Origin: Candidatus Poribacteria bacterium | GTDB taxonomy: Bacteria > Poribacteria > WGA-4E > WGA-3G | Length of the DNA: 64,000 nt | Reading direction: 5' to 3' | NCBI GenBank assembly: GCA_009839745.1 | Contig: VXPE01000117.1 | Location: 6,059-70,058, forward strand | Notes under the pieces: model-generated | Told to the model about the DNA's origin: nothing | Seen by the model: the letters and a program-made list of their open reading frames with translations, nothing else | The model's database searches: none | Shown: positions 10,779 through 53,479 of the stretch, in pieces | Position numbering within the stretch: the first letter of the stretch is position 1 | Layout of the letters: the number at the start of each line of letters is the position of its first letter | Made by a program: the position numbers and the translations under genes

Positions 10779-11920
10779 GGATCGGTGTCGTTTACTCTGG
10801 GGAGCAGAGTCAACCGGGATTTTTTCAGGCTTTGTACCCTATCCAATTGCGCGTGAACTGCATTGCGAGTTCCAGTGCTATTCCCGAAAATCGTGCGCGT
10901 GTTGAGGAATTTGCATCGTTTCTTGAGTGTGATTTCTTTGACAGTCCTGAAGAAATGTTCACCACAGCGAGACCGAAATTGGAAGGCGTCATTATTATCT
11001 CAGATGAAACCGCAAGCGTGCCTATTGCTCAACTCATTGAATCTGCACTTGCTGCGGGTGTCAATGTCTTATCTCCAGCTCCCCTCAATTCTTTAGCAGA
11101 CGGACTGCACCTTGCCGCAGCCTCTGAAAAATATAACCGGCTTGTTATGACGGGGACACGGTTTATATTCGGTAGATGCGTTCAGGAACTCTTACGTATC
11201 GTAAGCGATGCCGAGTTTGGCGTGATTCAAGACATGCGATTCTTACTTGGAATCGGGCGGGTGCCATATTTAAACGATCTGTTGAAATTGGGAGCGCCGC
11301 ATTTTCAGATTGTTTTTGAGATAGCCCGTCGCCTCTTTGTGGAATATACTGTGCTACCTGAGGAAGTGACTGTGATGGCTTCCAAAACTGGGGCACCCAA
11401 CATAAGCAGTACTATCAGATTTCCGCAGGGAGCACTTTGCACCTTCTGCCAGACTTCTAATCGTCAGTGGGGCAACGACTCCTACCATACCATCGAAATT
11501 ACCGGGAGAACTTCCCATATCTGGAGCGATCTGCAAACGTGGCGGTATTTTGCTAACGAGAACACTTTCCGAATGGGTGGCGGAGATGAGGAGATTTCGG
11601 CGAATATACAGGGTTTTTCGGGACAACTACGCGAGTTCTGTTTAGCGATTGAAGGGGATCGCCAGCCCTATGCAGGCACGCTCCGAAGCGTTTTGCCTTC
11701 TTTATGGTTTCGAGAAAGATTACAAGACTGTATTGAACGGAAACAGACGAGTCTAAAAATGAGCGAGTTTCGCGTCAGTTTAGACGACGAAATTCAACGG
11801 TTGGCATCCAAACGCGATGTCAACCCACAAGACAAAAAACACCGACGTGAGAAGGCATTCCTCTTGGGTAAAAGAGGCGATTTCTCACAAGCTCTCATAG
11901 AGTACGGCGAAACTTTGTAA
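10775..11920 (+). CDS. Hypothetical protein, weakly Gfo/Idh/MocA-like N-terminus without a GxGxxG dinucleotide motif
   Basis: MRIGVVYSGEQSQPG... has the beta-strand start and later EEMFTT...LEGVIIIS spacing reminiscent of Gfo/Idh/MocA proteins, but the glycine-rich loop is absent. The C-terminal tail is basic. Confidence 0.45.
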   Translation: MRIGVVYSGEQSQPGFFQALYPIQLRVNCIASSSAIPENRARVEEFASFLECDFFDSPEEMFTTARPKLEGVIIISDETASVPIAQLIESALAAGVNVLSPAPLNSLADGLHLAAASEKYNRLVMTGTRFIFGRCVQELLRIVSDAEFGVIQDMRFLLGIGRVPYLNDLLKLGAPHFQIVFEIARRLFVEYTVLPEEVTVMASKTGAPNISSTIRFPQGALCTFCQTSNRQWGNDSYHTIEITGRTSHIWSDLQTWRYFANENTFRMGGGDEEISANIQGFSGQLREFCLAIEGDRQPYAGTLRSVLPSLWFRERLQDCIERKQTSLKMSEFRVSLDDEIQRLASKRDVNPQDKKHRREKAFLLGKRGDFSQALIEYGETL

Positions 11921-12010
11921 TTTCACCTATCATCGTAGCAAACAAGTGATTTCTCCAATCAGTAATGCTTATTGAAGCGATTACCCGCCAAAAAGACAAG
12001 GGAAAACAAA

Positions 12011-13099
12011 ATGATTGAGAGAACCGCAACGCAGGCACACGGCGTTACCAGGGATATTATCTCCGAATCTGCTCAGATGCAAGCGGTCTTCCGATATGTT
12101 AAGCGAGTTGCTCCTACAAAGGCGACTGTCCTCATCACAGGTGAAACGGGAGTTGGCAAAGAAGTCGTCGCGCAAGCAATTCACGATAGCAGTCCGCGTA
12201 GAAAGGCTCCGTTCAAAATCATGAACTGTAGTGCGATTCCACCGGAACTCATTCAAAGTGAGCTCTTTGGACACGAAAAAGGAGCCTTTACCACGGCTCT
12301 TCGGCAGCATCGCGGGGTGTTTGAACAAGCGAATCGAGGCACGTTGTTTTTGGATGAGGTAGCGGAAATGCCGCTTGGTGCCCAAGCGAATTTTCTCCGT
12401 GTCTTGGAGGGACGAGAATTCTCTCCGGTCGGCGGGGAAAAAACAATCAAAGTGGATGTCCGAGTTATTGCAGCGACAAATGTTAACCTTAAAACTGCGG
12501 TCAACGAAAAAAAATTTAGAGAAGACCTCTATTATCGAATTAATCTCTTTCGCATTCAGATTCCGCCGCTCCGCCATCGACGTTCAGACATAGGACCTTT
12601 AGCTTTCAATTTCATCTCGCAATTAAGCAGTGAACATAACAGATCAATTAACAGTATAACGCCTGAGGCAATTAACTATCTCCAAAATGTCGATTGGTAC
12701 GGTAACGCGCGCGAACTCAGAAATGTAATAGAGACCGCAATTATCTTGACTGAAGGTGAAGAATTGAAAAAGGAGGATGTGGAAATAGCCGTGGAAATGT
12801 TAAATGAGCATGATGCAAACTCGGCAGGATTATCAGACGCAATTCGTGTCGGAGCAGAAAATTCGAAAGAATTCAATGGGAACTCACATATAATACCTGA
12901 AGACGATAAAAACAGATTCTGGGAGTTAATCCAGACCGGAACAATGTCCGAAATAACCTCTCATGTTACCCTTATGAGATACCGATCAGAAAGTTCTCAC
13001 TGTTCAAAACGGGATATTGCAAAAAGTCTCCAAATATCTGTGCCTACCTTGGACAAGTATTGTGCTTTAGCCGAGGAAAACACTGAAGAAAGAAAATAA
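12011..13099 (+). CDS. Sigma-54-dependent transcriptional activator (bEBP), AAA+ core plus C-terminal HTH, no N-terminal sensor domain
   Basis: Walker A ITGETGVGKE, L1 loop ELFGHEKGAFTTA (GAFTGA variant), Walker B LFLDEV, RVIAATN, C-terminal SKRDIAKSLQISVPTLDKY. ATG 12011 follows AAGGGA. The track ORF starts at TTG 11972. Confidence 0.85.
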   Translation: MIERTATQAHGVTRDIISESAQMQAVFRYVKRVAPTKATVLITGETGVGKEVVAQAIHDSSPRRKAPFKIMNCSAIPPELIQSELFGHEKGAFTTALRQHRGVFEQANRGTLFLDEVAEMPLGAQANFLRVLEGREFSPVGGEKTIKVDVRVIAATNVNLKTAVNEKKFREDLYYRINLFRIQIPPLRHRRSDIGPLAFNFISQLSSEHNRSINSITPEAINYLQNVDWYGNARELRNVIETAIILTEGEELKKEDVEIAVEMLNEHDANSAGLSDAIRVGAENSKEFNGNSHIIPEDDKNRFWELIQTGTMSEITSHVTLMRYRSESSHCSKRDIAKSLQISVPTLDKYCALAEENTEERK

Positions 13100-13130
13100 A
13101 AACATCATAGAATCGACAGAAAACTGATAC

Positions 13131-13170
13131 AAAACCGCGGTGGCACTTATTGCTATTGCGGTTTTTTCAC
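13131..13170 (+). terminator. Possible terminator after the bEBP gene
   Basis: aaaaccgcgg ... ccgcggtttttt: stem aaaccgc/gcggttt with a large loop, followed by a T-run. Confidence 0.45.
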
Positions 13171-13397
13171 GCCTGCACGTGCTTAGCATGTTGTGGGCTA
13201 TTTTTGTTTGTAAGAATTTTTGTAAAAACAAAAAAATTTAGCAAGGGGCATAAATATTTTGGGGTTTTTCCAGAAACCACGAAATAGGAAATCTATCGGA
13301 TTTAGCGTAGGCTTTCGGTTAGAAACCCTGACGTTACAAGGTCATACGGTATGTAAAACGGAAAATATCCAATGATGATTCAAAGGATTCAGGAGAT

Positions 13398-13412
13398 TGG
13401 CACGGTTCTTGC
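13398..13412 (+). promoter_or_regulatory. Sigma-54 promoter (-24/-12)
   Basis: TGGCACGGTTCTTGC: exact TGGCAC-N5-TTGC with canonical GG-to-GC spacing, in a non-coding gap about 300 nt downstream of the bEBP gene. Confidence 0.75.
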
Positions 13413-13482
13413 TCAAGTATATCTTGTAGACACGTAGCAAACTCTCGCTCAACTGGCGTTCGATTTTTAAAAGGGGTACATA

Positions 13483-13750
13483 ATGTCGGACTGAGATAGA
13501 CGGTAAACTTGTTGAAGGTGCTGGAACACTGCGCCTTACTGAAACAACGTTTATCCAAGAATTTGAGAACGGAAATCAATTTTTAGCGGGTTCGTACCAA
13601 TTGATTGAACCGTATACCAACAGACAGGGAACGATTCATTGGTTTATTGATGGAAACGCGAAGCCTTCGATAAGTACGTATACGTCCGATGGAAAACTTT
13701 TGGTCCTTTTTTGCGAAGTTAACTCTATACGGTATGTTTACCAAAAGTAA
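13483..13750 (+). pseudogene. Small ORF with a disrupted start (ATG-TCG-GAC-TGA, then an 85-codon open frame at +1)
   Basis: AAAAGGGG-N7-ATG at 13483 is followed after 3 codons by TGA. The +1 frame reads EIDGKLVEGAGTLRLTETTFIQEFENGNQFLAGSYQLIEPYTNRQGTIHWFIDGNAKPSISTYTSDGKLLVLFCEVNSIRYVYQK* and looks protein-like, but has no usable ATG/GTG/TTG start near its 5' end (first in-frame TTG about 38 codons in). Confidence 0.3.
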
Positions 13751-13995
13751 ATTAACGTGAGTTTGATAAAAGTGGGATGTCGGATTTCGCTACTGCTATT
13801 TCGTTAAAAAGTCGTTTGAAAAAGGGTGTATCTGCCCATATTTTGCGTTTTTTCGGTCGTTTTACCGCTCTACCTGGGGAAACACCCAAGCAAAAACACC
13901 TACAGATTTATTTTCAAACTCACGTTAGGTATGGAGGTATTGAGGACATGCGGTTTCTCGTACCTCCCTAACCTTTTTCAAGGAGAAATTTGAAC

Positions 13996-14895
13996 GTGAA
14001 AAAAAATGTTCTTGGAATTGTATCTACTTGGGTCGGTGTATTTGCGATTATTGTTCTGGGTATTCTACTCTATGCAGCTTCAAAGAAACTTGGGCAGGTT
14101 CAGGTTGAGTTAGTGTCCACCGAACGGACTTTGCAAACTGTGGAAAGCGAGAAAACCGATCTTAAAAAACGGTTGGGAGAAACTCAAAGTATACTTGAAG
14201 CAGCACGTTTAGACCTCAATCAGACCCAAGAAATATTGCAAAACGCCAGTGAAGCCTCCCAAAAAATCGCTGCCGAACGTAATGCGCTTAGACAGGAAAA
14301 ACGCTCACTTGAAAGCGAAAAAGAGGGCCTTCGGGCAAAATTAGCCGAAATCGAGTTTGAACTCCAACAGATTCGTATCCAATCGCAACGTTCAATCGCC
14401 GCTATCCAAGCGAAATTTAAAGATTCAGTCGGTGCGGTATTGGATGACGCAGGACGCCTGAAGCTTGATGTCAAAGGGAAAATCCTGTTCGAAACTGGGA
14501 AGGCGACTTTAAGTCCAGAAGGAAAAACACTCCTTGAGGCGATCGCTGCGGAAGTCTTGCTCAGCACGAACTATCTGGATTACGCCGTGCGGGTTGAAGG
14601 ACATACCGATGACGCGCCGATAGGAGGATCAGCGTTACGAAATTGGAATCTGTCAACCGAGCGGGCAATCGCTGCTGTTAAATACCTCCAGGAGCATGCG
14701 GGCATTAAGGCCCAACGTTTGGCGGCAACAGGATATGCTTTCTATCAACCGATAGACGCTGCCGACACACCCGAGGCGAAAGCGAAAAACCGGAGAATTG
14801 AAATTATACTGGTGCCACCGCAGGATTTTTTATCCGAGCTGCTGACTTCACTTCAAAATGTAATGGCATCTATTGAGAATCAGGCGAGTCAGTAG
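13996..14895 (+). CDS. OmpA/MotB-domain protein with N-terminal TM helix and coiled coil
   Basis: C-terminal RVEGHTDDAPIG...NWNLSTERAIAAVKYL...NRRIEIILVP is the OmpA-like peptidoglycan-binding motif. N-terminal hydrophobic helix, then a heptad-rich region. GTG 13996 lies 9 nt after AAGGAG (the track uses TTG 13990). Confidence 0.8.
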   Translation: MKKNVLGIVSTWVGVFAIIVLGILLYAASKKLGQVQVELVSTERTLQTVESEKTDLKKRLGETQSILEAARLDLNQTQEILQNASEASQKIAAERNALRQEKRSLESEKEGLRAKLAEIEFELQQIRIQSQRSIAAIQAKFKDSVGAVLDDAGRLKLDVKGKILFETGKATLSPEGKTLLEAIAAEVLLSTNYLDYAVRVEGHTDDAPIGGSALRNWNLSTERAIAAVKYLQEHAGIKAQRLAATGYAFYQPIDAADTPEAKAKNRRIEIILVPPQDFLSELLTSLQNVMASIENQASQ

Positions 14896-14984
14896 TTTTG
14901 TGATAGCAAACTACTGACAGGGAAATGGCACTACAAGTATCTGTTGATATTCCGACTTACATTCAAACGAGAGGAAAACGCATA

Positions 14985-17246
14985 ATGTTTTCAAAGAGCA
15001 AACAACAATCTGGATCCAAAACTGTGCCATCTCAACGAGGTCACGGCTTTGGGACGGCTCCAGTGTTTCTGACTTCAATCACAACGATCTTGGGTGCCAT
15101 TCTCTTTTTACGCTTCGGTTATGCTATCGCGAATGTCGGACTCTGGGGTAGCCTCATTATTATCCTCCTCGGGCATTTGGTTACGATTCCGACAGTGTTA
15201 GCAGTATCGGAAATTGCAACCAATCGCCGTGTGGCAGGCGGGGGTGCCTATTATATTGTGAGCCGCTCCTTTGGCACGAGCATTGGAGGCGCGATCGGAC
15301 TTGCCCTGTATTTTTCCCAAGCGATCTCGGTCGCTTTCTATATGGTAGCATTTGCCGAGGCTTTTGTCCCCATCTATCAGTGGATCTTAGACACCTATGA
15401 GTTGGGTCTTGACCCACGTTGGGTGAGTGTCCCGTGTACCGTATTGCTCATCGCACTCATGTTAACGAAGGGCGCGGATATAGGGGTGTCGGCACTCTGG
15501 GGTATCAGTGCCATCCTTGCTGCATCGATAGCAACTTTTTTTTTGGGTCAGGGGCCTGAATCCATACAGCCCGATGGTCTGAATATTACGGCGCGCATTG
15601 AAAACGGCGATAGCTTCGGTACGGTTTTCGCGACCTGTTTTCCCGCCTTCACTGGGATGATTGCGGGTTTGGGACTCTCCGGGGACTTGAAAAACCCTCA
15701 GAGAAGCATACCCCTTGGCACGATTGCGGCGACACTCACAGGTATGGTGGTCTATATTTTTGTTGCCTTTAAATTGTGTCAGAGTGCGACACCGGAGGCA
15801 CTCGCCGGTGATCAGTTTATCATGGCACAGATTTCCTTATGGGGACCGGCTATCTATATTGGGTTGGGAGCCGCTGCGCTCTCATCCGCTCTCGGCTCAA
15901 TCCTCGTGGCGCCCCGAACACTGCAGGCACTTGCTCGTGACAATGTACTGCCGATTCCGAAGCTGAACCGCCTCATGGAAAAAGGGTTCGGAAAGAATGA
16001 AGAACCCGTATACGCGACGTGTGTATCAGGCGCAATCGCTATAGTGTTCACTGTCGTAGGCGGTGTGGATTTTATCGCGCAGATCCTCAGTATGTTCTTC
16101 ATGGTAATGTACGGAGCACTCTGTGCTGTTTCATTTCTTGAGCACTTCGCGGGTAATCCGTCCTATCGCCCGACTTTCCATTCTCGGTGGTACCTGTCTC
16201 TGCTCGGAACTATGATGTGTGGATTGATGATGATTCAAATAAGTGCCCTATACGCGTTCATCTCAATTTTTCTCATGGCGATCACTTATCTGGGGCTTCG
16301 CCGCAGCAGTAGAGGCCAACGCGATTTGACAGCGATCTTCCAAGGAACGATGTTTCAATTAACTCGGTGGTTGCAGACGACTCTGCAGAAGAATCGCGTC
16401 ATTACATCAGAAGGGGGATGGCGTCCTTCGATTATCGCTATAACTCGATTCGGAGAACGTCGGCTGGGTCATTTTGACTTACTCCGTTGGATTTGCCACC
16501 GACACGGATTCGGTCAGTTTATGCAGTTCCTGCCTGTTGATTATTCGTTTACCAGCGATAGAGAAGCGCGTAGCCAGGTTGACGGGTTGATTCAGCGAGC
16601 GGAGATGAGTAAAGCAGGTATCTTCGTTGATTCCGTAATTTGCCCGACGTTTCCACTTGCTATGGCGCAAATACTACAGATGCCTGGGATTTCTGGCTTA
16701 CCAAACAACTGTGTCCTCCTTGAGTTTAAAGGTGAGAGTCCTGAGGAGTTCGAAGAAGTTAAACAAGGCGCGCGTCTCGCAGCGAGCTTAATGTCCAACG
16801 TCTTGATCCTGCGATCAACAGAATATCGATTCGGGTATCGCGCCTCGATCCATGTGTGGGTGACAGAGGATAACTTGAAGAATGCACCCCTGATGCTGCT
16901 GCTTGCATATATCATTGTGGGACATCCGGAGTGGAAACGTGCTGAGATCCAACTGTTCGCCTGCTCCGAGGCAAGAGACGCTGAACGTGAGGCTGACGAA
17001 CTCTCGACACTGATGGAGGAGGGTCGGATCCCGATTTCAAGGCAGAATGTGACCTCTATTTCCTATAACAGCCCAGAGGTTTTGGAAAAAGAGGTGGCGC
17101 AACGCTCTTTTCAGGCTGACCTGGTTATCGCGGGTTTAACAGAGGAACGCCTTAATTCTGAGGAATTAGCCCAAACGTTACTATCTTACGAAGGCGTGAA
17201 CGACGTACTGTTCGTCCATTCAATTGAGGAGATTGTCATTGATTAA
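14985..17246 (+). CDS. APC-superfamily transporter, cation-chloride cotransporter (SLC12)-like, with a large cytoplasmic C-terminal domain
   Basis: About 12 TM segments (FGTAPVFLTSITTILGAILFLRFGY..., AFTGMIAGLGLSGDLKNP) followed by about 300 soluble residues, the architecture of CCC/SLC12 homologues. ATG 14985 has a GAGAGGA RBS. The track ORF starts at 14925. Confidence 0.75.
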   Translation: MFSKSKQQSGSKTVPSQRGHGFGTAPVFLTSITTILGAILFLRFGYAIANVGLWGSLIIILLGHLVTIPTVLAVSEIATNRRVAGGGAYYIVSRSFGTSIGGAIGLALYFSQAISVAFYMVAFAEAFVPIYQWILDTYELGLDPRWVSVPCTVLLIALMLTKGADIGVSALWGISAILAASIATFFLGQGPESIQPDGLNITARIENGDSFGTVFATCFPAFTGMIAGLGLSGDLKNPQRSIPLGTIAATLTGMVVYIFVAFKLCQSATPEALAGDQFIMAQISLWGPAIYIGLGAAALSSALGSILVAPRTLQALARDNVLPIPKLNRLMEKGFGKNEEPVYATCVSGAIAIVFTVVGGVDFIAQILSMFFMVMYGALCAVSFLEHFAGNPSYRPTFHSRWYLSLLGTMMCGLMMIQISALYAFISIFLMAITYLGLRRSSRGQRDLTAIFQGTMFQLTRWLQTTLQKNRVITSEGGWRPSIIAITRFGERRLGHFDLLRWICHRHGFGQFMQFLPVDYSFTSDREARSQVDGLIQRAEMSKAGIFVDSVICPTFPLAMAQILQMPGISGLPNNCVLLEFKGESPEEFEEVKQGARLAASLMSNVLILRSTEYRFGYRASIHVWVTEDNLKNAPLMLLLAYIIVGHPEWKRAEIQLFACSEARDAEREADELSTLMEEGRIPISRQNVTSISYNSPEVLEKEVAQRSFQADLVIAGLTEERLNSEELAQTLLSYEGVNDVLFVHSIEEIVID

Positions 17247-18054
17247 CCTAAGCACACCAACGATATGGGGAATAACAAAGGGCCACAGTCCCGTTGTAGC
17301 AGCAGCGATTCATGATGGACATCACGTGCGTGAGGAAGTCTCGAGAATTCTGGCTTTAACCGATGCAGAAAGGCTCAGAGAAGAGGATCCCTTTACTGCC
17401 ATCTGGACTGAGGTCGCAGAAACACGGATTATAGGCTCACAATCCCGCTTTGAGGTAGATCTGAATCGTCCGCGTGAGAAAGCCGTTTATATTAGACCGG
17501 AGGATGCTTGGGGACTCCGTGTTTGGCAAGAGCGTCCGGATGAACAACTGATCAGCAGGTCCTTAGCAGGATACGATGCCTTCTATTCGGAAGTCCACAA
17601 CCTATTGACAGATATTGCGCGGCACTTTGGACATTTTGTTGTTTTTGATCTACATTCGTACAATCATCGTCGCGACGGTCGTAATGCCCCACCGGCGGAG
17701 CAAGAAGAGAATCCAGAAGTTAATATTGGCACAGGGACGGTGGTTAACGAGAAGTGGACTCCGCTGATTCAGCGTTTCATGGCAGACCTTCGGGCTTTTG
17801 ACTTTATGGGGAGACATCTCGATGTCAGAGAAAATGTCAAATTCCGAGGTGGACAGTTCGCACGATGGATTCATGAATCGTTTCCAAATTCTGGTTGTGC
17901 GATTGCCATCGAATTCAAAAAATTCTTCATGGATGAGTGGACAGGTGAGCCAGATATGATGGGAATCAACACGATTCAACATGCTTTACAATCCACACTG
18001 TTAGGTGTAGAAGAAGAAATTGACATATTGAATAGAGCCGAGAAAAAAATATAA
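17224..18054 (+). CDS. N-formylglutamate amidohydrolase (FGase) family protein
   Basis: SRFEVDLNRP and VVFDLHSYNHRR match the FGase/HutG-type metal-site motifs. The ORF overlaps the transporter gene end by 23 nt. Confidence 0.7.
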   Translation: MRRLSLINLSTPTIWGITKGHSPVVAAAIHDGHHVREEVSRILALTDAERLREEDPFTAIWTEVAETRIIGSQSRFEVDLNRPREKAVYIRPEDAWGLRVWQERPDEQLISRSLAGYDAFYSEVHNLLTDIARHFGHFVVFDLHSYNHRRDGRNAPPAEQEENPEVNIGTGTVVNEKWTPLIQRFMADLRAFDFMGRHLDVRENVKFRGGQFARWIHESFPNSGCAIAIEFKKFFMDEWTGEPDMMGINTIQHALQSTLLGVEEEIDILNRAEKKI

Positions 18055-18076
18055 AACCCGAGGAAAAATTAGCAAG

Positions 18077-20002
18077 ATGGCAGATCAACCCAAGGTATCT
18101 CCTAAAATTATCAGTGATCGATTCATTAGGACAGTTTGTGATCGACTTGCAGAAAACAAGGCGGTTCGTCGGACTCTCCCGGATCGTGGACGGTTGCATA
18201 TTGATCGGCAATTGCCATTTCTGTGTGTCTATCGGTATCCACCAAAGTATAAAGATACTGGCACGGAGCGTCTTGTTATGGGTCAACCGTCCTACTTAAT
18301 TGCTTCAGGGGACAGTCGAATGGGTGCGAGTCTATCCGAACTTATCCAGAATATTGCCCGAACATTATCCCGTGAGTTTGGGGCTTTTCTGATTTTGGAG
18401 ATCTGGAGCGGAAAGAAAAATGAGGACGGCAACGATTCCGCTCAACTCACGCGGGTACCCGAATTCCGGATTGCAACACAATCAACCGTGAGTCCCTTTG
18501 GAACCGTTGAGACACTCGCGGAGGCACTTCGCCGTGTTCGCGTTCGCAAACAGGAAGCTGTGGTCAAAATGACGCGGCATCGGAAAATAGCCCCCTCCGG
18601 TTTACCTGCCCTGTTGCCAACCCAAGTTTGCAAGGAAATAGGATGTGCTATAATCGGTCTTGAGGTGTCTCCTATCTATCGCTCACCTGAAACGGATGAA
18701 GTTTTTCCGATAATTCGACGGGCACTCGCGCGTGAAATCACTGGGGCGTTGCAGAAAACCTTTTTTCAGTTCTCACGAGCAGAAACGACGCATCGCCCTG
18801 CACATTTTCATGTTTTGGGACGTCGGGCAGTTGTTAAGGCGGTTTGGGAAGTAGACAAACAGCTCGCAGAAATCAGTAATGCATTTGGTTTTCTGCTACA
18901 GGTAACACCGATCAATACAGAAGACGCGTATGCATCATTTAGACGTTCACATTTTGAACGGACACCGGTTTTTTATTACCGTCCACGTGCTTTTGATCCT
19001 GCACTGCTCAAGCGTAAACTTTGGAATATTGGGTTAGAACGGATAGAAGACCCAACACTTGCACACCTTTTCCGAGAAAAGCGCGATGAACTTGATATAC
19101 AACTCACGATGCTGAGTCATGTTGATACACCACGATTCTTGCCCGGCAGTTTGCAGCTTTTTGGTGATGTAAACGATAACCTTTTGCAACTTGCCCAAGA
19201 AATTGTAGCTTATGTGCCCTCCCAGAGTCGTGAGAGGAAACCGAGTATTAGACTTGATGCCACGGCTTTTGCGAAACGCGTTGAAAAGGAACTTCAATAC
19301 TACCGACACCAATTCCCCGAATTTTCTGCGAGCGTTGAGATACGCGATGATATTTACGCGGGACTTATGGTGTCTAACGGAAACCTACTCATCGGCAAAA
19401 AAGCACGAATCCCAGTTTCTCGTGCAGATGCGTTGATTCAGCACGAAGTCGGTACGCATATACTCACCTACTTCAACGGACGTGCCCAACCGTTCCAAAT
19501 GCTCTATACTGGACTCGCGGGTTACGAGGAAATGCAGGAAGGCATTGCTGTCCTTTCAGAATACCTTGTGGACGGTCTGAGCCTTCCGCGGCTACGACTT
19601 TTGGCGGGACGCGTAATCGCTGTGCGTTGTTTAATAGATGGTGCTTCTTTTATTGAGACTTTTCGAATCCTCACAGAGACTTACGCATTCACACAACGAA
19701 CAGCCTTCACTGCGACAATGAGAACTTATCGCAGTGGTGGTTTAACTAAAGATGCAGTTTATCTCAGAGGACTCATCGGGCTGTTAGATTATTTAAAAAA
19801 AGGAGGTGCATTTGAGCCGCTCTTTGTCGGGAAAATCGCAGTTGAACACATTCCTATCATTCAAGAATTACAGTGGCGTAAGGTTCTAAAACCAGCACCG
19901 CTACGCCCAAGGTATATGGAAAATCCAAGTGTAGAAGAGAAAATCAATGCGTTACGCAAAGAAGCCTCTGTTCTTGGTTTAATCAAAAAGGAGAAAAAAT
20001 GA
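18077..20002 (+). CDS. DUF1704 / QEGLA-motif protein (MATCAP-type gluzincin carboxypeptidase-like)
   Basis: HEVGTH (HExxH) at 19442-19459 and MQEGIAVLSEY (QEGLA-type motif) at 19535-19549. 641 aa. Confidence 0.75.
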   Translation: MADQPKVSPKIISDRFIRTVCDRLAENKAVRRTLPDRGRLHIDRQLPFLCVYRYPPKYKDTGTERLVMGQPSYLIASGDSRMGASLSELIQNIARTLSREFGAFLILEIWSGKKNEDGNDSAQLTRVPEFRIATQSTVSPFGTVETLAEALRRVRVRKQEAVVKMTRHRKIAPSGLPALLPTQVCKEIGCAIIGLEVSPIYRSPETDEVFPIIRRALAREITGALQKTFFQFSRAETTHRPAHFHVLGRRAVVKAVWEVDKQLAEISNAFGFLLQVTPINTEDAYASFRRSHFERTPVFYYRPRAFDPALLKRKLWNIGLERIEDPTLAHLFREKRDELDIQLTMLSHVDTPRFLPGSLQLFGDVNDNLLQLAQEIVAYVPSQSRERKPSIRLDATAFAKRVEKELQYYRHQFPEFSASVEIRDDIYAGLMVSNGNLLIGKKARIPVSRADALIQHEVGTHILTYFNGRAQPFQMLYTGLAGYEEMQEGIAVLSEYLVDGLSLPRLRLLAGRVIAVRCLIDGASFIETFRILTETYAFTQRTAFTATMRTYRSGGLTKDAVYLRGLIGLLDYLKKGGAFEPLFVGKIAVEHIPIIQELQWRKVLKPAPLRPRYMENPSVEEKINALRKEASVLGLIKKEKK

Positions 20003-21045
20003 AAATCGGATTCCTCGTCAATGATCTGGAAACTGAACAAGCCGGATACACAACGACTCGGCTGGCAATGCAGGCGATCAACATGGGACATGAGGCGTGG
20101 ATAATAGCAGTCGGCGATCTCGCTTACGATCCAGATGAGTATATTCGTGCGACGGCTCGTATGGCACCGCGCAGTAATTATAAATCCCACCAAACCTATT
20201 TCAATGACCTGCAGAGCAAACGGGCAAAAGTGGAGCGTATTACGGTCGATGATTTAGATATTTTGCTCCTACGAAACAACCCAGCGGATGATGCGATGGC
20301 AAGACCTTGGGCTCAAAACGCTGGACTCATTTTCGGGAGAGTCGCAATGCGACACGGTGTCATTGTGCTCAATGACCCGAATGGACTTGCCAAAGCACTC
20401 AACAAAATGTACTTCCAACTTTTCCCTGAGGAGGTGCGACCGAGAACCCTAATTACGAGAAGTCAAAGCGAGATCAAAACATTTGCTCAAGAACAAGGTG
20501 GGACAGTGGTATTGAAACCGCTGCAGGGATCCGGTGGACAAAGTGTCTTTCTTGTTAGACCGGATGACCTTCCGAATATCAATCAGATGATTGATGCTGT
20601 CGCCAGGGATGGATATGTCATCGCACAGGAATATCTACCCGCGGCAGCAGAGGGAGACATGCGCTTGTTCGTTCTCAATGGACTGCCGCTGCGTTACCGT
20701 GGCAGATATGCGGCTTTCCGGCGGGTTCGCATGGGCGGCGACATGAGAAGTAACATTCACGCAGGCGGGAAACTTCGGCAGGCGGAAATTACCGATACCG
20801 CCTTAGAACTCGTCGAAATGGTACGCCCTAAATTAGTTCAAGATGGCATGTTCTTGGTAGGTTTGGACATTGTAGGAGACAAACTTATGGAGATTAATGT
20901 CTTCAGTCCAGGCGGGTTGGGAAGTGCACAAAGGTTTGAAAAAGTGAATTTTAACGTCGCTGTTATTGAGGCACTTGAGAAAAAAGTGCAGTACATGAAA
21001 TACTACCGGCGAAATTTTGACAATGTGGAAATGGCAGTCCTGTAA
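19999..21045 (+). CDS. ATP-grasp ligase, glutathione synthetase (GshB)-like
   Basis: N-terminus MKIGFLVNDLETEQAGYTTTRLAMQAINMGHEAW resembles the prokaryotic GshB N-domain. LKPLQGSGGQSVFLV and the MEINV... ATP-grasp motifs are present. ATGA overlap with the DUF1704 gene. Confidence 0.75.
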   Translation: MKIGFLVNDLETEQAGYTTTRLAMQAINMGHEAWIIAVGDLAYDPDEYIRATARMAPRSNYKSHQTYFNDLQSKRAKVERITVDDLDILLLRNNPADDAMARPWAQNAGLIFGRVAMRHGVIVLNDPNGLAKALNKMYFQLFPEEVRPRTLITRSQSEIKTFAQEQGGTVVLKPLQGSGGQSVFLVRPDDLPNINQMIDAVARDGYVIAQEYLPAAAEGDMRLFVLNGLPLRYRGRYAAFRRVRMGGDMRSNIHAGGKLRQAEITDTALELVEMVRPKLVQDGMFLVGLDIVGDKLMEINVFSPGGLGSAQRFEKVNFNVAVIEALEKKVQYMKYYRRNFDNVEMAVL

Positions 21046-21262
21046 AATTCACATGACGGGGTTGTCAACATCTTGGACATGGGGATGGCGAACGGATTTG
21101 GCACAGATCAAAATGTAATGGAATCTATTGTTCAGTAGGACTACGGCTAATGTAACTTTTTGATGATTCTATTCGTCATAAATTATAGTAAATTATCAAA
21201 AAATGAAATTTAGAACAAGCAGATAGTATTACTGACTCGTATGATTTTCGGGAGGCTATACA

Positions 21263-22339
21263 TTGAGAATTCCGCTGTTAAATCCGTTCAAAAGATATTC
21301 GCAAAAAGTTGGGCTTCCGCCTGGAACACTTATTTATGTGGGTGAAGAGCGGACAGAACCCGTTAGGATTACCATCACTGATTATGATGAAAAACACCTT
21401 CACGAAGAAGAGGTTCAAACGGTAGAGGCGTGTCTACCTTTCAAAGATACGGCGACTGTTACTTGGATTCACATTGAAGGCGTTCATGATACAGATATCA
21501 TTGAAGAGATTGGAGAGCATTTCGGGGTTAATTCGCTTGTGCTTGAAGATTTGATGAGCCCTACTCAACTCTCCAAAATAGAGGTATATGAGGACTATGT
21601 CTTTGTTATCCTCAAGCATCTCGATTCTGATAGGGCATCTCTAAAGGTCTCAAGGGAACAAATCGGTCTTATTATTGGCGAGAGATTTGTAATTTCACTC
21701 CAAGAAAATTCCGGATCACTCTTCGCGCCTATTCACAATAGACTCAAAAACGTCAATGGTAGACTTCGAAAGATGCGGTCCGATTATCTTGCGTATGCGT
21801 TAATAGATGTTATTGTTGATAACTACTTCATCGTGTTGGAACATCTCAGTGATCAAATTGAATCGGTGGAGGAAGAAGCCATTACGAACCCGACATCAGA
21901 AATTCTCGCGAGAATCAATGAATTGAGAAGGAAGTGTCTACTTTTACGTAGACCAATTCTTCCGCTGCGCGATGTTCTCAATGATGTGTTAGATGACGAA
22001 ATTCCGCTATTTACGCAAGAAACATCTCTATATTTCCGAGATGTCTACGACCATCTGGCGCAAGTGATACACACGTTAGAAACGCTTCGCAGCGCGGTTT
22101 CAGGGCTGTTTGATACCTATACCTCGGCGGTGAGTCATCGGATGAATGAAGTCATGAAGGTACTAACCATTGTGGCGACATTTTTTATTCCACTGACCTT
22201 CATCGCCGGTATTTATGGGATGAATTTCAAATCCATGCCCGAACTTGAAGCCGAATGGGGATACCCGGTTGTTTTGTTAGTGATGGTGGGCATTGGCATC
22301 GCTATGTTTCTCTATTTCAAGTTCAGAAAATGGTTCTGA
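21263..22339 (+). CDS. corA: Magnesium/cobalt transporter CorA
   Basis: C-terminal YGMNFKSMPELE (GMN motif) plus two TM helices. TTG start 8 nt after GGGAGG. Confidence 0.9.
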   Translation: MRIPLLNPFKRYSQKVGLPPGTLIYVGEERTEPVRITITDYDEKHLHEEEVQTVEACLPFKDTATVTWIHIEGVHDTDIIEEIGEHFGVNSLVLEDLMSPTQLSKIEVYEDYVFVILKHLDSDRASLKVSREQIGLIIGERFVISLQENSGSLFAPIHNRLKNVNGRLRKMRSDYLAYALIDVIVDNYFIVLEHLSDQIESVEEEAITNPTSEILARINELRRKCLLLRRPILPLRDVLNDVLDDEIPLFTQETSLYFRDVYDHLAQVIHTLETLRSAVSGLFDTYTSAVSHRMNEVMKVLTIVATFFIPLTFIAGIYGMNFKSMPELEAEWGYPVVLLVMVGIGIAMFLYFKFRKWF

Positions 22340-22485
22340 ATTTTGAAGAGTAGCAGTTCAAAACAGCATTTGGCTTATATAGGGGTCGTAGCACACATGT
22401 GCCTCTCGGTGAGAGTTTTCATCTCACAGGAAACCCAATTTAACAGACTACTATTGCATCAAGATTGAGTTTTAGAGTCAGTTCA

Positions 22486-22518
22486 CCGTAGGGACGAGGT
22501 CTCCTCGCCCGTACAGCC
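22486..22518. repeat. REP-like hairpin GTAGGG-stem-loop-stem-CCGTACAG (copy a)
   Basis: ccgtagggacgaggtctcctcgcccgtacagccc; stem cgagg/cctcg. Confidence 0.65.
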
Positions 22519-22616
22519 CATAAGTTCAAAGTTGAAATAATACTACGCTACGAAGTTAGCAACCTGTGTTAATTACAGTAAATTTTTTAAGGAGGAGAAT
22601 AAAAAATATAATAAAC

Positions 22617-23354
22617 ATGCGATTGTCTTTAATTCACCACAATGTTTCAGTCAGTAAATTGTATATATCCGCCATTGTGGCGGTTTTCGGGGTTTTTTAT
22701 TCAATACCGGTATATGCCCAGTTCGCCGATTTGCCGCAGGATGCCAAAACGGTAGACATCGGTGTAAATGGCGACAGAACTTCACAGACACTCATCCTAA
22801 CTGCTGTTGTTCCGATTCAGGATATTAATGGGTGGGTCGGGATTTTTGGTTCGCGAGCGTCAAGTGAAGAAGAAGTGCTCTCTGAGATTGCCAAAGCGCG
22901 TGCCCAAGGCGGTTTTCGGATAGGCACTTTCGGGATTGAAGCGTTCACAGATTTGGAACGTAACATTAGTAAAGGGAGCACGCTAACATCCCAAATCGGT
23001 AGTTATATCCGTCCTGCGATTTATGAACGCGGGACACTTCGCGTATCTGGTGGTGTCGGTGCCTTCATTGAAAATATTCGACCTCAAAAAGACCTGGTGC
23101 TAAAGAATTTTGATCCGACAACGTTCCGATGGTTGGCATTCTCGTCGGTAGGATGGCGGAAACTGAATATTTTGTTGAAGTTCACGCCGGAAGTTGGATT
23201 CACAAACTATAAATTTTTGGCGGAGCCCGCGATTACTTTCAGCCTCTCTACCCGATTAAGTCTGCGTTTGAGTGGTTCCCTAACTTATAATAGCGATCCG
23301 TTAACGGAGAGATGGCATTATAAGTATCTGACGATTTTGCGAGTTACGTTATAG
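22617..23354 (+). CDS. Hypothetical secreted/outer-membrane beta-barrel-like protein
   Basis: MRLSL...ISAIVAVFGVFYSIPVYA-QF resembles a signal peptide. The alternating-hydrophobicity C-terminal region ends in an aromatic-rich strand. Start uncertain (the track gives GTG 22566). Confidence 0.45.
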   Translation: MRLSLIHHNVSVSKLYISAIVAVFGVFYSIPVYAQFADLPQDAKTVDIGVNGDRTSQTLILTAVVPIQDINGWVGIFGSRASSEEEVLSEIAKARAQGGFRIGTFGIEAFTDLERNISKGSTLTSQIGSYIRPAIYERGTLRVSGGVGAFIENIRPQKDLVLKNFDPTTFRWLAFSSVGWRKLNILLKFTPEVGFTNYKFLAEPAITFSLSTRLSLRLSGSLTYNSDPLTERWHYKYLTILRVTL

Positions 23355-23437
23355 CCGTATAATGTTCCTAAATGTGAATCACAACGTAGTCGAATAGTCT
23401 TAGTGCTCCCAAACAAACTTCAAGAAAGGGGAATAGA

Positions 23438-23753
23438 ATGTTTTTGGAAGCCATCGCACGTTTAGCAGAACGGATTTTTGGTTGACGCAGCAAAGGTCGT
23501 TACAGCGGATGTCATCGAAGAGATTGCGGAAGAACCGTTTATTCGTGCGGAATTGTTTGATGCGGGTGTGATGATGCGGTTACGCTACAAGACGCGCCCG
23601 GTGGATCGTGCGAAAAGTCTCAGCGACATTGTCAAAATTGTTTTTCATGGCTTCTCCGGGAGTAAGAGAGTTGAGTTCTGCTATGCACATTCAGAAATCA
23701 TTTACTCATGGAAAGACCAACCCGCATTATCGGCAAGTCTTTCAGAGGAGTAG
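23438..23753 (+). pseudogene. Remnant of an MscS-family C-terminal domain (frame-disrupted)
   Basis: ORF 23478..23753 (VVTADVIEEIAEEPFIRAELFDAGVMMRLRYKTRP...VEFCYAHSEI) is collinear with the C-terminal domain of the next gene (AAEVTADICEETGESPYVRFEFIPSGVVAKLRYRVSA...IEFAYVKSET) but has no TM/channel part. An RBS plus ATG at 23438 is in a different frame and stops after 15 codons. Confidence 0.45.
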
Positions 23754-23755
23754 TT

Positions 23756-24631
23756 ATGTCTTCAGAAGTCTGGCAGGCGATACTCAATTTCAAATACATA
23801 TCCGTGGTGTGGATGGTCTTGGTGGGGATAGGGACGGTCATTGTTTACTTTCGTCTGACCTCGCAGCTCCGCAAGTTTACAGAGGCGCACGCCTATAAGC
23901 CTGAGAATGCTGACCGCTTCTTTTTTATGTGGCGTTACGTGTTCATGTTTTCGATGGGTGTGCTCATCATTTTTCTTTTTTCCGATGTCTTTGGGATCAT
24001 CGGACTGTCATTAGCGTTTATAATGACGCTGATGGGGTGGGGTATCCGAAACCCGATCATGAACTTAGCCGCGTGGTTGTTGATTATCCTTCAGAAACCG
24101 TATCGGATTGGGGATAGGGTTATCTTGGGAACGACTATTGGTGACGTGCGGGACATCTCGATCATGTATACACAGTTGGATCAGGTTGGCGGAACGATTG
24201 GTGGGGAGGAGAAATCTGGGCGGAGTGTTATGATTCCGAACCAACATCTTTTTCGATGGAATGTGATTAACTATACACGAGACGAGAAATATATTCTGGA
24301 TGAGGTAATTATTCGGTTGACATATCGTTCAGATATAACGCGTGCCGAGCAGATTATGTGTGAGCAGGCGGCTGAAGTGACAGCTGACATCTGCGAGGAA
24401 ACAGGGGAATCGCCATACGTGCGGTTTGAGTTTATACCCTCCGGCGTGGTCGCCAAACTCAGGTATCGCGTCAGTGCTGTGAAGCGGCAAAGCACTTCGA
24501 CATTAATCGTGGAACGGATTTCCAAGGCGTTTAGGCACGCGGAGCAGATTGAGTTTGCCTATGTCAAGAGCGAGACACTACTAATCCCAAAGAACGATGA
24601 ATTGCCGCCACAGTATCTGCATATCCAATAG
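23756..24631 (+). CDS. Mechanosensitive ion channel family protein (MscS-like)
   Basis: TM helices followed by PYRIGDRVILG (MscS beta-domain motif). ATG 23756 lies 7 nt after GAGGAG (the track starts at 23708). Confidence 0.8.
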   Translation: MSSEVWQAILNFKYISVVWMVLVGIGTVIVYFRLTSQLRKFTEAHAYKPENADRFFFMWRYVFMFSMGVLIIFLFSDVFGIIGLSLAFIMTLMGWGIRNPIMNLAAWLLIILQKPYRIGDRVILGTTIGDVRDISIMYTQLDQVGGTIGGEEKSGRSVMIPNQHLFRWNVINYTRDEKYILDEVIIRLTYRSDITRAEQIMCEQAAEVTADICEETGESPYVRFEFIPSGVVAKLRYRVSAVKRQSTSTLIVERISKAFRHAEQIEFAYVKSETLLIPKNDELPPQYLHIQ

Positions 24632-24668
24632 TTCCCAGAACGTCCATTGACAGATAGGATAGAATAAA

Positions 24669-25877
24669 ATGAATGAATTAATCCAACAGGTCCGTGATTT
24701 AGTTGAAACACCGGTAAACATTTTGGGGGAACCCATAAAAGTTTTCCAAATTGTTTCGTTAATCCTGACTTTGACCGCCACATTGCTGGTAGCAGGATCT
24801 TTACATCGATGGTTCCGGCGTCTTTTCAATCGTCTCCGGATATCCAAAGATATCCAAAATCGGTTACTGGCGTTGCTATTTCTCATCATTGTGATTGTCG
24901 GAGGAGGTTTGGCTTTCAGATTCGCAGGAATTAGCACGGGTTTCCTTGGTAAAGTTTTTCATTACCCACTTACAGAGTTGTTCCAACCGCCTAAAAAAGC
25001 TGTCGAGATTGGTGAATCTGGAGAAGTATCACCGATTGAAACCGTTGAAGATAGTGGTAACTTAACGTTAGCGAGGCTATTCTATGCGTTTGTGATCATC
25101 TTCGGGATGTTTATCCTCTCTAAATACCTGCAATGGGTGCTCAGGCGGCAGGTGCTCCAAGATTTCCAAATTGCGAGACATACCCAGTTCATCTTGCTTC
25201 GATTTTTCCATTTTACGCTTATCAGCATTGGGAGCCTTCTGGCTCTCAGTGCCGTTGGCGTGAGTTTCACAACGCTGGCGATAATTTTCGGTGGGTTGAG
25301 TATCGGTATCGGTTTCGGTTTACAGAATATTGCCTCGAATCTGATTTCAGGATTTATCCTTATTTTTGAGCGTCCTATCAAAATTGGAGATCTCGTGGAG
25401 ATTATGGATGTCGACGTATTTGGAAGGGTGAGTAGTATCAATCTCCGTTCAACCGTTATCGTTTCGCTTGATGAAAAGGAGATTATTGTTCCTAACTCGC
25501 AGTTGATTACCGAGTCCGTTCATAACCTCACACACGATAGCCATCGCTTCCGTCTTCGGGTTCCCGTCGGGGTGTCGTATGGTTCAGATGTCGAGATTGT
25601 GAGAACAGCCCTGATTGAAGCGGCACATGAGCATCCGATGGTAATTAAAGAGTCCAATCCTACTTTGGAAAACGTCACGCCCCCCTTCGTGCGTTTTGTT
25701 AGTTTTGGTGAATCTTCTCTCGATTTTGAATTATTAGCGTGGATTCCTGACTCCTTTCGGCGTTTTGATATTGCCAGCGATCTCCATTTTTCGATTTGGC
25801 GCAAATTTAAAGCATACAATATTACAATTCCATTCCCGCAACGAGATGTCCATTTTTACCCGAAGGAAGCGGAATAA
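24669..25877 (+). CDS. Mechanosensitive ion channel family protein (MscS-like)
   Basis: GFGLQNIASNLISGFILIFERPIKIGDLVEI is the canonical MscS TM3/beta-domain junction. Confidence 0.85.
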   Translation: MNELIQQVRDLVETPVNILGEPIKVFQIVSLILTLTATLLVAGSLHRWFRRLFNRLRISKDIQNRLLALLFLIIVIVGGGLAFRFAGISTGFLGKVFHYPLTELFQPPKKAVEIGESGEVSPIETVEDSGNLTLARLFYAFVIIFGMFILSKYLQWVLRRQVLQDFQIARHTQFILLRFFHFTLISIGSLLALSAVGVSFTTLAIIFGGLSIGIGFGLQNIASNLISGFILIFERPIKIGDLVEIMDVDVFGRVSSINLRSTVIVSLDEKEIIVPNSQLITESVHNLTHDSHRFRLRVPVGVSYGSDVEIVRTALIEAAHEHPMVIKESNPTLENVTPPFVRFVSFGESSLDFELLAWIPDSFRRFDIASDLHFSIWRKFKAYNITIPFPQRDVHFYPKEAE

Positions 25878-53414: not shown

Positions 53415-53429
53415 TGGCACGGAATTTGC
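53415..53429 (+). promoter_or_regulatory. Sigma-54 promoter 1 upstream of hsp20
   Basis: TGGCACGGAATTTGC, exact TGGCAC-N5-TTGC. Confidence 0.7.
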
Positions 53430-53479
53430 TCTATATGCAAACAGTGAGGCAAATACCTTCAGATTGCCTCAGAAAAGAT

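Follow-up and report, generated by a model that had tools for sequence, protein, structure and literature searches.

Why does a bacterium encode an ATP-grasp ligase in one operon with a carboxypeptidase that may undo its work? The question is raised by four open reading frames (ORFs) on the + strand at positions 14985-21045 of a 64,000-nucleotide (nt) stretch of DNA from Candidatus Poribacteria bacterium (GCA_009839745.1, contig VXPE01000117.1, 6,059-70,058 of the forward strand), which we call the window. A sequence-only reading of this DNA had proposed that the genes pair a ligation step with a removal step, acting on a peptide, an osmolyte or a protein C-terminus, and that a dedicated transporter serves them. 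The coupling of the genes stands and the dedicated transporter does not. We find that an FGase, a MATCAP/DUF1704 protein and a GshB-like ATP-grasp ligase make up a conserved functional unit. As to its product, we favour, at a probability of roughly 0.42, the explanation that the trio assembles a small acidic peptide at the expense of ATP and hydrolyses it again step by step, in connection with ion and osmotic balance; modification of a protein tail is possible but doubtful. The window proteins have their best homologues in Poribacteria metagenome-assembled genomes (MAGs), at 80-95% identity, and the four genes are as follows.

14985-17246, + strand: SLC12-type transporter gene, 753 residues (ORF list, Pfam)
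17224-18054, + strand: FGase gene, 276 residues, core gene 1, starting at TTG 17224 or TTG 17239
18077-20002, + strand: MATCAP/DUF1704 gene, 641 residues, core gene 2 (Pfam, NCBIfam)
19999-21045, + strand: GshB-like ATP-grasp ligase gene, 348 residues, core gene 3 (NCBIfam, Pfam)

An ORF check confirmed these four co-directional, tightly packed genes and the junctions first described for them. A longer alternative ORF for the transporter begins at 14925; the ATG at 14985 is preceded by a better Shine-Dalgarno-like sequence, GAGAGGAA. With TTG 17224 as its start, the FGase gene overlaps the transporter gene by 23 nt. A second possible start, TTG 17239, follows a GAGGAG (17225-17230) and reduces the overlap to 8 nt; the two genes are coupled whichever start is used. 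The gap between the FGase and MATCAP genes is 22 nt and has GAGGA within it. At the next junction, aaaaaATGAaaa, the MATCAP and ligase genes share an ATGA overlap with GGAG before it, through which the ligase is predicted to be translationally coupled to the MATCAP gene. Pfam and NCBIfam scores agree with the four family assignments made earlier, and the motifs HEVGTH (19442-19459), QEGIA (19535-19549), SRFEVDLNRP, DLHSY and KPLQGSGG are all present. PADLOC returned no defence-system match for any of the tested proteins, and identity as a defence system was dropped on this ground. A scan for sigma-70 promoters and intrinsic terminators gave counts equal to the shuffled expectation and was uninformative.

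A profile of long-form MATCAP homologues, searched in species-representative genomes, yielded at least 571 confirmed stretches. From these, 80 loci were retrieved and compared with the window proteins by tblastn. They belong to Poribacteria, Chloroflexota, Planctomycetota, Acidobacteriota, Bacteroidota, Ignavibacteria, Calditrichota, Gemmatimonadota, Verrucomicrobiota, Myxococcota, Actinomycetota and others, at least a dozen phyla in all. Genes for FGase, MATCAP and ligase, adjacent in this order and co-oriented, were found in about 70 of the 80 loci. The ligase gene adjoins the MATCAP gene in 79, the sole exception being a truncated contig, and the FGase gene lies directly upstream of the MATCAP gene in most; in three loci (L058, L061 and L077) it is placed after the ligase gene instead. 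Because the arrangement recurs in about 70 of 80 independent loci, the linkage of the trio goes beyond chance, and we conclude that the three-gene core is a conserved functional unit. Conservation of this neighbourhood had been named beforehand as a check on the proposal, and the comparison bears it out. The proposed four-gene operon holds as a unit for the FGase, MATCAP and ligase genes, and not for the transporter gene, which lies within 10 kb of the trio in 11 of the 80 loci.

The ligase is the most conserved member of the trio, at 65-78% identity across phyla as compared to about 50% for the MATCAP protein and about 55% for the FGase. Nearly all of its best 120 matches in a large database are exactly 348 residues long, at 74% identity or more. 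The trio is also present on pSymB of Sinorhizobium meliloti and in Shinella, Ensifer and Rhizobium replicons, and a solo PRK12458-type ligase (the subfamily to which the ligase belongs, see below) was found on an Ensifer plasmid. Altogether, the trio is an ancient, widespread and uncharacterised module of an ATP-grasp ligase and a peptidase.

In some Planctomycetota and Verrucomicrobiota, extra ligase and MATCAP paralogues stand in tandem beside a single FGase gene (L023, L029, L059, L065 and L079), an arrangement that looks like stepwise peptide assembly. Tandem expansions were also seen in L033, L055, L066 and L076, in the last of which an FGase was not found within 10 kb. The layouts include FGase-MATCAP-ligase-ligase-MATCAP-ligase, three successive ligases, and three MATCAP-ligase pairs; the paralogous ligases of tandem loci are 55-74% identical to the query ligase.

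The pairing does not extend to all DUF1704 proteins, a generalisation ruled out by short forms (about 426 residues; DUF1704/QEGLA) that stand alone, without an adjoining ligase or FGase, at two plasmid loci in Pseudoalteromonas and Legionella. Both also lack the FGase-like N-terminal domain described below. The Pseudoalteromonas gene (L082, 6938-8218) neighbours betI-betB-betA and a BCCT transporter, genes of glycine-betaine osmoprotection, and the Legionella gene (L085, 4968-6257) neighbours murI, for glutamate racemase. The pairing with a ligase and an FGase seen here thus belongs to long-form DUF1704.

The transporter was the part of the earlier proposal that fared worst. It matches AA_permease at 144 bits in Pfam and remains below the cut-offs for the SLC12 C-terminal domain (21.8 bits, cut-off 27) and for TIGR00930 (281.6 bits, cut-off 953.4). 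Its PDB matches are NKCC1 and KCC1-4 (E 3e-53, reaching residue 682), with amino-acid carriers far behind (E 1e-9). In the tblastn comparison the position of the SLC12-like gene shifts even within Poribacteria. A carrier dedicated to a peptide or osmolyte product is thus unlikely, and the idea was dropped in view of the linkage in only 11 of 80 loci together with the likeness to NKCC/KCC rather than to amino-acid carriers. We regard the protein as a predicted homologue of inorganic cation-chloride cotransporters, encoded by a local accessory gene outside the core.

The nature of the ligase is central to the function of the trio. Both GshB domains of Pfam, GSH-S_N and GSH-S_ATP, are present (GSH-S_ATP at 171.9 bits). 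With NF009110 (PRK12458), the ligase scored 481.4 bits against a cut-off of 408, over protein residues 1-348 and model positions 1-349. Its scores with the models of true GshB were below the cut-offs (NF003573, 211.7 bits, cut-off 272; TIGR01380, 196.7 bits, cut-off 299.05), as were those with RimK models (TIGR00768, 74.7 bits, cut-off 143.4; NF007764, RimK family, 29.9 bits, cut-off 331). The ligase therefore passes the PRK12458 subfamily model alone and fails the GshB equivalogs and the RimK model. Plasmid-borne homologues are bimodal in their identity to it: 46-50% for those of PRK12458 type versus about 30% for annotated gshB products.

In line with the earlier observation that no gshA is nearby, neither a Glu_cys_ligase nor a GCS2 domain was found among the ORFs of window positions 1-44 kb. 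In S. meliloti, a mutant of the chromosomal gshB (SMc00419) is without glutathione (GSH) as determined by high-performance liquid chromatography (PMC7063052). This species carries a PRK12458-type paralogue on pSymB, and since the SMc00419 mutant lacks GSH even so, the paralogue does not rescue the loss. We conclude that the ligase is not a redundant GshB and that the module does not serve glutathione synthesis. All the source names among the best 120 ligase matches read 'glutathione synthase', and the records of S. meliloti and Shinella do the same; this database label is probably wrong.

The ligase is very likely still an active enzyme, as judged from its alignment with E. coli GshB (1GSA), in which the GshB residues K125, K160, G164-G167, D208, R210, R225, R233, D273, E281 and N283, with their roles in ATP binding, Mg binding and catalysis, are kept. 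Its N-terminal substrate domain has AGYTTTRLAM, where the E. coli GshB counterpart is presumably KKDSSFAM, and the region around residues 44-110 carries insertions relative to GshB. The best PDB sequence match is again 1GSA (E 1e-37). An AlphaFold2 (AF2) model with a predicted local distance difference test score (pLDDT) of 77.7 also found 1GSA as its best fold match in Foldseek (E 2.4e-22; TM-score, TMt, 0.83), followed by RimK (E 2.5e-14) and then by PsnB and LysX/ArgX. The likeness to GshB or RimK suggested from the sequence is thus upheld, with GshB first and RimK second by fold. The suggested analogy to the tubulin ligase TTL applies at the level of the ATP-grasp superfamily and no further, as there was no match to PF03133 at E <= 0.01 and TTL was absent from the top 50 Foldseek matches.

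The 641-residue partner of the ligase falls into two parts.

18077-18871, + strand: FGase-like N-terminal domain of about 260 residues (fold and profile-profile match)
18935-19939, + strand: MATCAP/DUF1704 gluzincin carboxypeptidase domain, C-terminal part (PF08014, residues 287-621; TIGR02421)

The C-terminal part scores 312.6 bits with PF08014 (MATCAP, Pfam cut-off 27) and 347.9 bits with TIGR02421 ('QEGLA', NCBIfam cut-off 338.65). HEVGTH (residues 456-461) and QEGIA (residues 487-491) align with HEIGTH and EEGLA of the human protein, and H456, E457, H461 and E488 are invariant in 62 homologues. The zinc motif is present as claimed, although it had been assigned to the wrong class: HEVGTH is not HExxH but HExxxH, as in human MATCAP, and an unusual extended HExxxH motif has been reported for TMCP1/MATCAP (PMC10499314). 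Human MATCAP is matched both by sequence (PDB 7Z5G, E 3.8e-6) and, from an AF2 model with a pLDDT of 86.6, by fold (Foldseek 7Z6S_C, E 1.6e-8, TMt 0.70). Together with the PF08014 and TIGR02421 scores, these matches confirm the DUF1704 membership and the MATCAP likeness that the sequence-only reading had put forward for checking. Among the invariant residues of the domain are the basic residues R505, R507, R512, R549, R552, K558, K586 and R601. The protein is a predicted metallocarboxypeptidase with its catalytic motifs intact.

TIGR02421 and PF08014 span only residues 260-625 of the 641. The first 260 residues, which are conserved in all long-form homologues, gave no Pfam match even at E 10 and no PDB sequence match. 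Their AF2 model is confident and shows an alpha/beta domain, for which Foldseek returned the N-formylglutamate amidohydrolase 2Q7S (E 5e-3, probability 1.0), M14-like putative metallopeptidases (3IEH, 3B2Y and 2QVP) and PNP/MTAN-fold proteins. A profile of the domain aligned with that of the neighbouring FGase (hhalign, E 2.5e-4 over 178 columns), pairing RLHIDRQLP with RFEVDLNRP, FLILEIWS with FVVFDLHSY, and GLEV with AIEF. FGase residue H144 is replaced by an invariant W110 in this domain, and the segment bearing FGase H30 is absent. We therefore consider that the protein carries, with moderate support, a degenerate FGase-like domain fused to the carboxypeptidase, which is probably non-catalytic because H144 is replaced and the counterpart of H30 is missing. 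This putative domain had been overlooked earlier and was found here.

The stand-alone FGase matches PF05013 at 74.5 bits (cut-off 28.9) over profile positions 1-214 of 219. It had no NCBIfam model match and no PDB sequence match at E <= 1. H30, E77, D79, H144 and E230, the putative metal ligands or catalytic residues, are invariant in 48 of 48 homologues. Enzymes of this family are amidases for small molecules and act on N-acyl amino acids. A HutG function was set aside, as there was no equivalog model match, and neither the annotated genes of the window nor the recurrent neighbour families that were looked at included a recognised hut gene.

Further evidence comes from the surroundings of the trio, which lies in a same-strand island (11972-25877) of ion channels and transporters with a sigma-54 activator and a putative sigma-54 promoter. 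The sequence-only reading had overlooked this island, which comprises, in addition to the SLC12-type gene and the trio, the following features.

11972-13099, + strand: sigma-54 enhancer-binding activator (Pfam Sigma54_activat, 235.7 bits), AAA+ domain from residue 29, no N-terminal sensor domain
13398-13413, + strand: putative sigma-54 promoter (-24/-12), TGGCACGGTTCTTGCT, perfect consensus match
13990-14895, + strand: OmpA/MotB-like protein with a coiled-coil N-terminal part (Pfam OmpA, 71.4 bits), first gene past the sigma-54 site
21263-22339, + strand: CorA Mg2+ channel (PF01544, 258 bits)
22566-23354, + strand: 262-residue protein of unassigned family, no Pfam match
23708-24631, + strand: MscS-family mechanosensitive channel homologue (MS_channel_2nd, 55.7 bits)
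24669-25877, + strand: second MscS-family channel (MS_channel_2nd, 79.9 bits; MS_channel_3rd, 52.4 bits)

The same gene set is retained, in shuffled order, in the five Poribacteria loci L001-L005. A homologue of the activator lies directly upstream of the trio in three of them (L001, L002 and L004), and the 262-residue protein, which may be part of the ion-homeostasis island, is conserved in Poribacteria between CorA and the SLC12-like gene, at 68-71% identity in L002 (17735-18487), L003 (8103-8864) and L004 (15716-16477). The OmpA-like gene is not conserved beside the trio in other loci, as judged by tblastn. TGGCACGGTTCTTGCT is one of only three sigma-54 sites with no mismatch in the window. 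Perfect sites also precede the FGase gene in L002, L004 and L026, and sites with up to two mismatches were found in 11 of 64 upstream regions, as compared to about 0.04 sites expected per region at the background rate. These results suggest that the site at 13398-13413 could act as a promoter.

Crude ORFs of the 80 loci were clustered and cluster representatives checked with Pfam, which gave the following recurrent neighbour families.

MscS: 17 loci, 23 copies
CorA: 13-15 of 80 loci, within 10 kb
Sigma-54 activators: 13 loci
MgtE: 11 loci
SLC12-like: 10 loci (ORF clustering)
CNNM/CorC: 7 + 5 loci
MscS-like: 7 loci
MgtE_N-CBS: 5 loci
CitMHS-TrkA_C: 4 loci

Altogether, 88 of 905 flanking ORFs (9.7%) belong to ion-transport or channel families (MscS, CorA, MgtE, CNNM/CorC, SLC12 and CitMHS-TrkA_C). 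Ion genes account for 16 of 146 immediate neighbours, and at least one is present in 24 of the 51 fully flanked loci. In a Planctomycetota MAG (L026, 2828-8224), the MATCAP gene ends at 5750 and the ligase gene starts at 7181, with an entire MgtE gene (5767-7161) between them on the same strand, and a perfect sigma-54 site lies 34 nt upstream of the FGase gene. The trio thus has a recurrent ion and osmotic genomic context. Expression data point the same way: in Photobacterium damselae, comparing 1% with 3% NaCl, the adjacent genes annotated 'GshB' (RS17020) and QEGLA (RS17025) are up 38-fold and 27-fold, respectively, as are RimK (52-fold) and MgtE (5-fold) (PMC10308900).

A second recurrent set was seen in 5-7 loci (L018, L043, L052, L054, L056, L062 and L071) and consists of a 770-residue creatininase-domain fusion, DUF1611, a pyridoxal phosphate-dependent (PALP) enzyme and an MR_MLE enolase-superfamily epimerase. 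Ddl-like ATP-grasp genes are near the trio in 4 further loci. In the region 13100-14000 no convincing small gene for a precursor or target peptide was found, and small ORFs that flank the cassette or one of its genes in S. meliloti, Ensifer and Legionella show no relationship among themselves. The roughly 575 nt from the sigma-54 site to the start of the OmpA-like gene (13414-13989) hold no convincing ORF and could form a long leader or a regulatory RNA. Two overlapping ORFs on the + strand directly upstream of the activator gene, 10107-10778 (223 residues) and 10775-11920 (381 residues), had no Pfam or PADLOC match. Elsewhere in the window, three sigma-54-like sites fall within about 100 nt on the + strand, at 53415-53430 and 53480-53495 (both perfect) and 53503-53518 (one mismatch), just upstream of an ORF at 53514-54011. 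A giant TamB/AsmA/DUF748-like protein of 2171 residues is encoded at 27075-33590 (+), an ORF of more than 1460 residues at 59613-64000 (+) runs past the window end, and the start of the window encodes a relative of microcystinase C, an M81 metallopeptidase with DUF1485 and MlrC_C (322-1782, -).

Based on these observations, we propose the following scheme for the building and breaking of a small acidic peptide. With ATP and Mg2+, the ligase would turn a carboxylate into an activated acyl-phosphate and add an amino acid to a small acidic acceptor, likely a glutamate-containing, N-blocked or gamma-linked di- or oligopeptide; the chemistry would be the same as that by which GshB joins Gly to gamma-Glu-Cys. 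The MATCAP-type carboxypeptidase would take off the added C-terminal residue, its degenerate FGase-like N-domain recognising the N-acyl-Glu-like end of the same molecule, and the stand-alone FGase would hydrolyse the leftover N-acyl-amino-acid amide. In this way the three enzymes could set the pool of an anionic peptide solute or counter-ion, following K+/Cl-/Mg2+ fluxes and the osmotic state.

A small molecule is favoured because GshB, a small-peptide ligase, is nearest to the ligase by both sequence and fold, because the FGase family acts on N-acyl amino acids and an FGase-like domain appears fused to the carboxypeptidase, and because the tandem ligase/MATCAP loci with one FGase suggest stepwise assembly. 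The ion and osmotic part of the proposal rests on the frequency of ion genes (88 of 905 ORFs, 24 of 51 loci), on MgtE inside the L026 operon, on the gene set retained in Poribacteria and on the induction of the P. damselae pair at 1% versus 3% NaCl.

Several points weigh against this explanation. Transcribing the ligase together with two enzymes that hydrolyse its presumed product would amount to a futile cycle, barring regulation after transcription. The fixed length of 348 residues and the identity of at least 74% among the best 120 matches are unusual for a small-molecule enzyme, and the ligase could have a macromolecular partner; its next fold matches, RimK and LysX/ArgX, act on protein C-termini. 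The FGase fold of the N-domain is a moderate assignment (TMt 0.35-0.39, hhalign probability 43%). Ion genes are missing from the neighbourhood in about half of the fully flanked loci, and the background frequency of such genes, below 1%, is general knowledge rather than a genome-wide computation. The P. damselae pair was matched to the trio by annotated names; its PRK12458 type and long form are presumed. Finally, the substrates of the MATCAP enzymes of eukaryotes are protein tails and not small peptides (PMC10499314).

The last point leads to the strongest alternative, a reversible modification of a protein C-terminal tail, in which the ligase would add one or more residues (Glu, Tyr or another) to a conserved protein, MATCAP would trim them and the FGase would process the released products. 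Bacteria would then have their own version of the RimK/RimB system of ribosomal protein S6, or of the TTL/MATCAP system of tubulin, acting perhaps on a ribosomal protein or on the ion channels and transporters encoded close by. The characterised MATCAP/TMCP enzymes, whose catalytic motifs the trio protein has in common, are carboxypeptidases on acidic protein tails, deglutamylation included (PMC10499314), and the many invariant Arg and Lys residues of the MATCAP domain fit an acidic tail as substrate. The proteins that follow GshB in the fold ranking, RimK, LysX/ArgX and the ligase PsnB of ribosomally synthesised and post-translationally modified peptides, all use peptide or protein carboxylates, and a ligase of fixed length with 65-78% identity across phyla fits a conserved macromolecular substrate. 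RimK is moreover co-induced with the 'GshB'/QEGLA pair in P. damselae (PMC10308900). However, the 80 loci have no fourth conserved gene and hence no candidate target, and among three genomes the small ORFs adjoining the cassette bear no relation to each other. FGase-family small-molecule amidases have no obvious role in such a cycle, and GshB is clearly nearer to the ligase than RimK is (E 2e-22 versus 1e-14), the RimK model scoring 74.7 against its cut-off of 143.4. We therefore consider a protein tail a doubtful, though serious, candidate. A bolder version appears unlikely, in which the trio is a bacterial 'C-terminal tail code' whose ligase and carboxypeptidase reversibly add and remove acidic or aromatic residues on a conserved protein under ionic stress, and in which the MATCAP side of the tubulin tyrosination/glutamylation cycle of eukaryotes derives from this bacterial pairing; here the targets may be a ribosomal protein or the neighbouring Mg2+, K+ or mechanosensitive channels.

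Less likely again is a role in catabolism or salvage alone, the substrate being a peptide-like compound that the cell imports or stores; the two hydrolases would break it down and the ATP-grasp enzyme would re-ligate or activate an intermediate. The compound could be poly- or oligo-glutamate, an N-acyl dipeptide osmolyte such as N-acetylglutaminylglutamine amide (NAGGN), or a peptide of the cell wall. In favour of this idea, hydrolases make up two of the three enzymes, the MR_MLE epimerase/DUF1611/PLP enzyme/creatininase-fusion set in 5-7 loci points to dipeptide or amino-acid metabolism, and short-form DUF1704 genes stand beside betIBA-BCCT in Pseudoalteromonas and murI in Legionella. In contrast, an auxiliary step would not be expected to fall to the trio's most conserved and most constant member, as the ligase is. 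The trio is not accompanied by a conserved uptake system for an organic substrate; its recurrent transporters carry inorganic ions, and the second neighbour set occurs in fewer than 10% of loci.

It is highly improbable that the ligase is a bona fide GshB using gamma-Glu-Cys from a gshA elsewhere, its adjacency to FGase and DUF1704 genes being meaningless: the name given by every annotation pipeline, both GshB Pfam domains, all catalytic residues, both loops and 1GSA as the closest fold agree with that idea, whereas scores that miss both equivalog cut-offs but exceed that of the separate PRK12458 subfamily, a discrete sequence class (46-50% within versus about 30% to true gshB), a MATCAP adjacency nearly constant across at least a dozen phyla from which unrelated neighbours would part, the GSH loss of S. 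meliloti when chromosomal gshB alone is disrupted (PMC7063052), the lack of gshA within 44 kb and the different N-terminal substrate domain (AGYTTTRLAM; insertions around residues 44-110) speak against it.

The three enzyme families and their database names, TIGR02421 and PRK12458, are already known. In the searchable literature we found no description of the cassette, the FGase-like N-domain or the ion context, although an earlier comparative-genomics or in-silico mention may exist. Nor did we find there an account of the biochemical function of a bacterial DUF1704 cassette, which agrees with the sequence-only reading on this point. The module reaches at least 571 stretches in species-representative genomes of at least a dozen phyla, including the model organism S. 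meliloti, which, like Photobacterium, is a genetically tractable host. If the 'glutathione synthase' label is wrong, inferences on thiol metabolism drawn from genomes and metagenomes are contaminated by it. Judging from the linkage to CorA, MgtE, CNNM, MscS and SLC12 genes and from the response of expression to salt, Mg2+, K+ and osmotic homeostasis may involve a so far unnoticed factor, which could be an anionic peptide solute or a protein modification. MATCAP is a recently discovered eraser of the tubulin code, and with bacterial relatives of it paired with an ATP-grasp ligase, the origin of ligase/carboxypeptidase cycles becomes experimentally approachable.

How the trio relates to known systems can be summarised from its two best-matched enzymes outwards. 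The human tubulin tail carboxypeptidases MATCAP/TMCP1 (KIAA0895L) and TMCP2 share with the trio protein the PF08014 family, the HExxxH motif, the downstream EG(L/I)A glutamate and the fold, at a sequence identity of merely 17-20%. The bacterial long form differs in its additional FGase-like N-domain of about 260 residues, in its operon with an ATP-grasp ligase and an FGase, and in having no microtubule substrate. With E. coli GshB (1GSA), the ligase shares both Pfam domains, the residues for ATP, Mg and catalysis, and two loops, one Gly-rich and the other large and flexible. It is longer (348 versus 316 residues), carries insertions in the N-terminal substrate domain and belongs to the separate PRK12458 subfamily, with about 30% identity to true GshB and 46-78% within its own class; it is not seen with gshA here and has a MATCAP homologue alongside in 79 of 80 loci.

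Three known cycles combine a ligase and an eraser in a comparable manner. RimK and RimB, which carry out the poly-alpha-glutamylation of S6 and its removal, likewise consist of an ATP-grasp ligase of the same clade (RimK being the second-best fold match) and a reversing peptidase. The trio has the FGase in addition, no link to S6 was seen in it, and its ligase is below the RimK cut-off; the RimB-type protease is not a gluzincin, whereas the eraser of the trio is one. The tubulin tyrosination cycle of TTL and MATCAP also pairs an ATP-grasp ligase with a MATCAP-family carboxypeptidase, but the eukaryotic genes are unlinked, the ligase of the trio has no specific affinity to TTL and no tubulin-like target is evident. 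In the mammalian cycle of N-acetylaspartylglutamate (NAAG) and beta-citrylglutamate, the enzymes are the ATP-grasp ligase RIMKLA/B, the carboxypeptidase GCPII/III and aspartoacylase; N-acetylaspartate (NAA) and NAAG are linked to osmolyte roles and beta-citrylglutamate to metal chelation. Its roles would map one-to-one onto those proposed for the trio, as they run from a ligase that joins an amino acid to an N-acyl amino acid, through a metallo-carboxypeptidase that takes this residue off, to a zinc amidohydrolase that deacylates the N-acyl amino acid, the carboxypeptidase being M28 there and MATCAP here, and the amidohydrolase AstE_AspA there and FGase here. We conclude that the NAAG cycle is the closest working analogy for the trio, to be taken as an analogy only.

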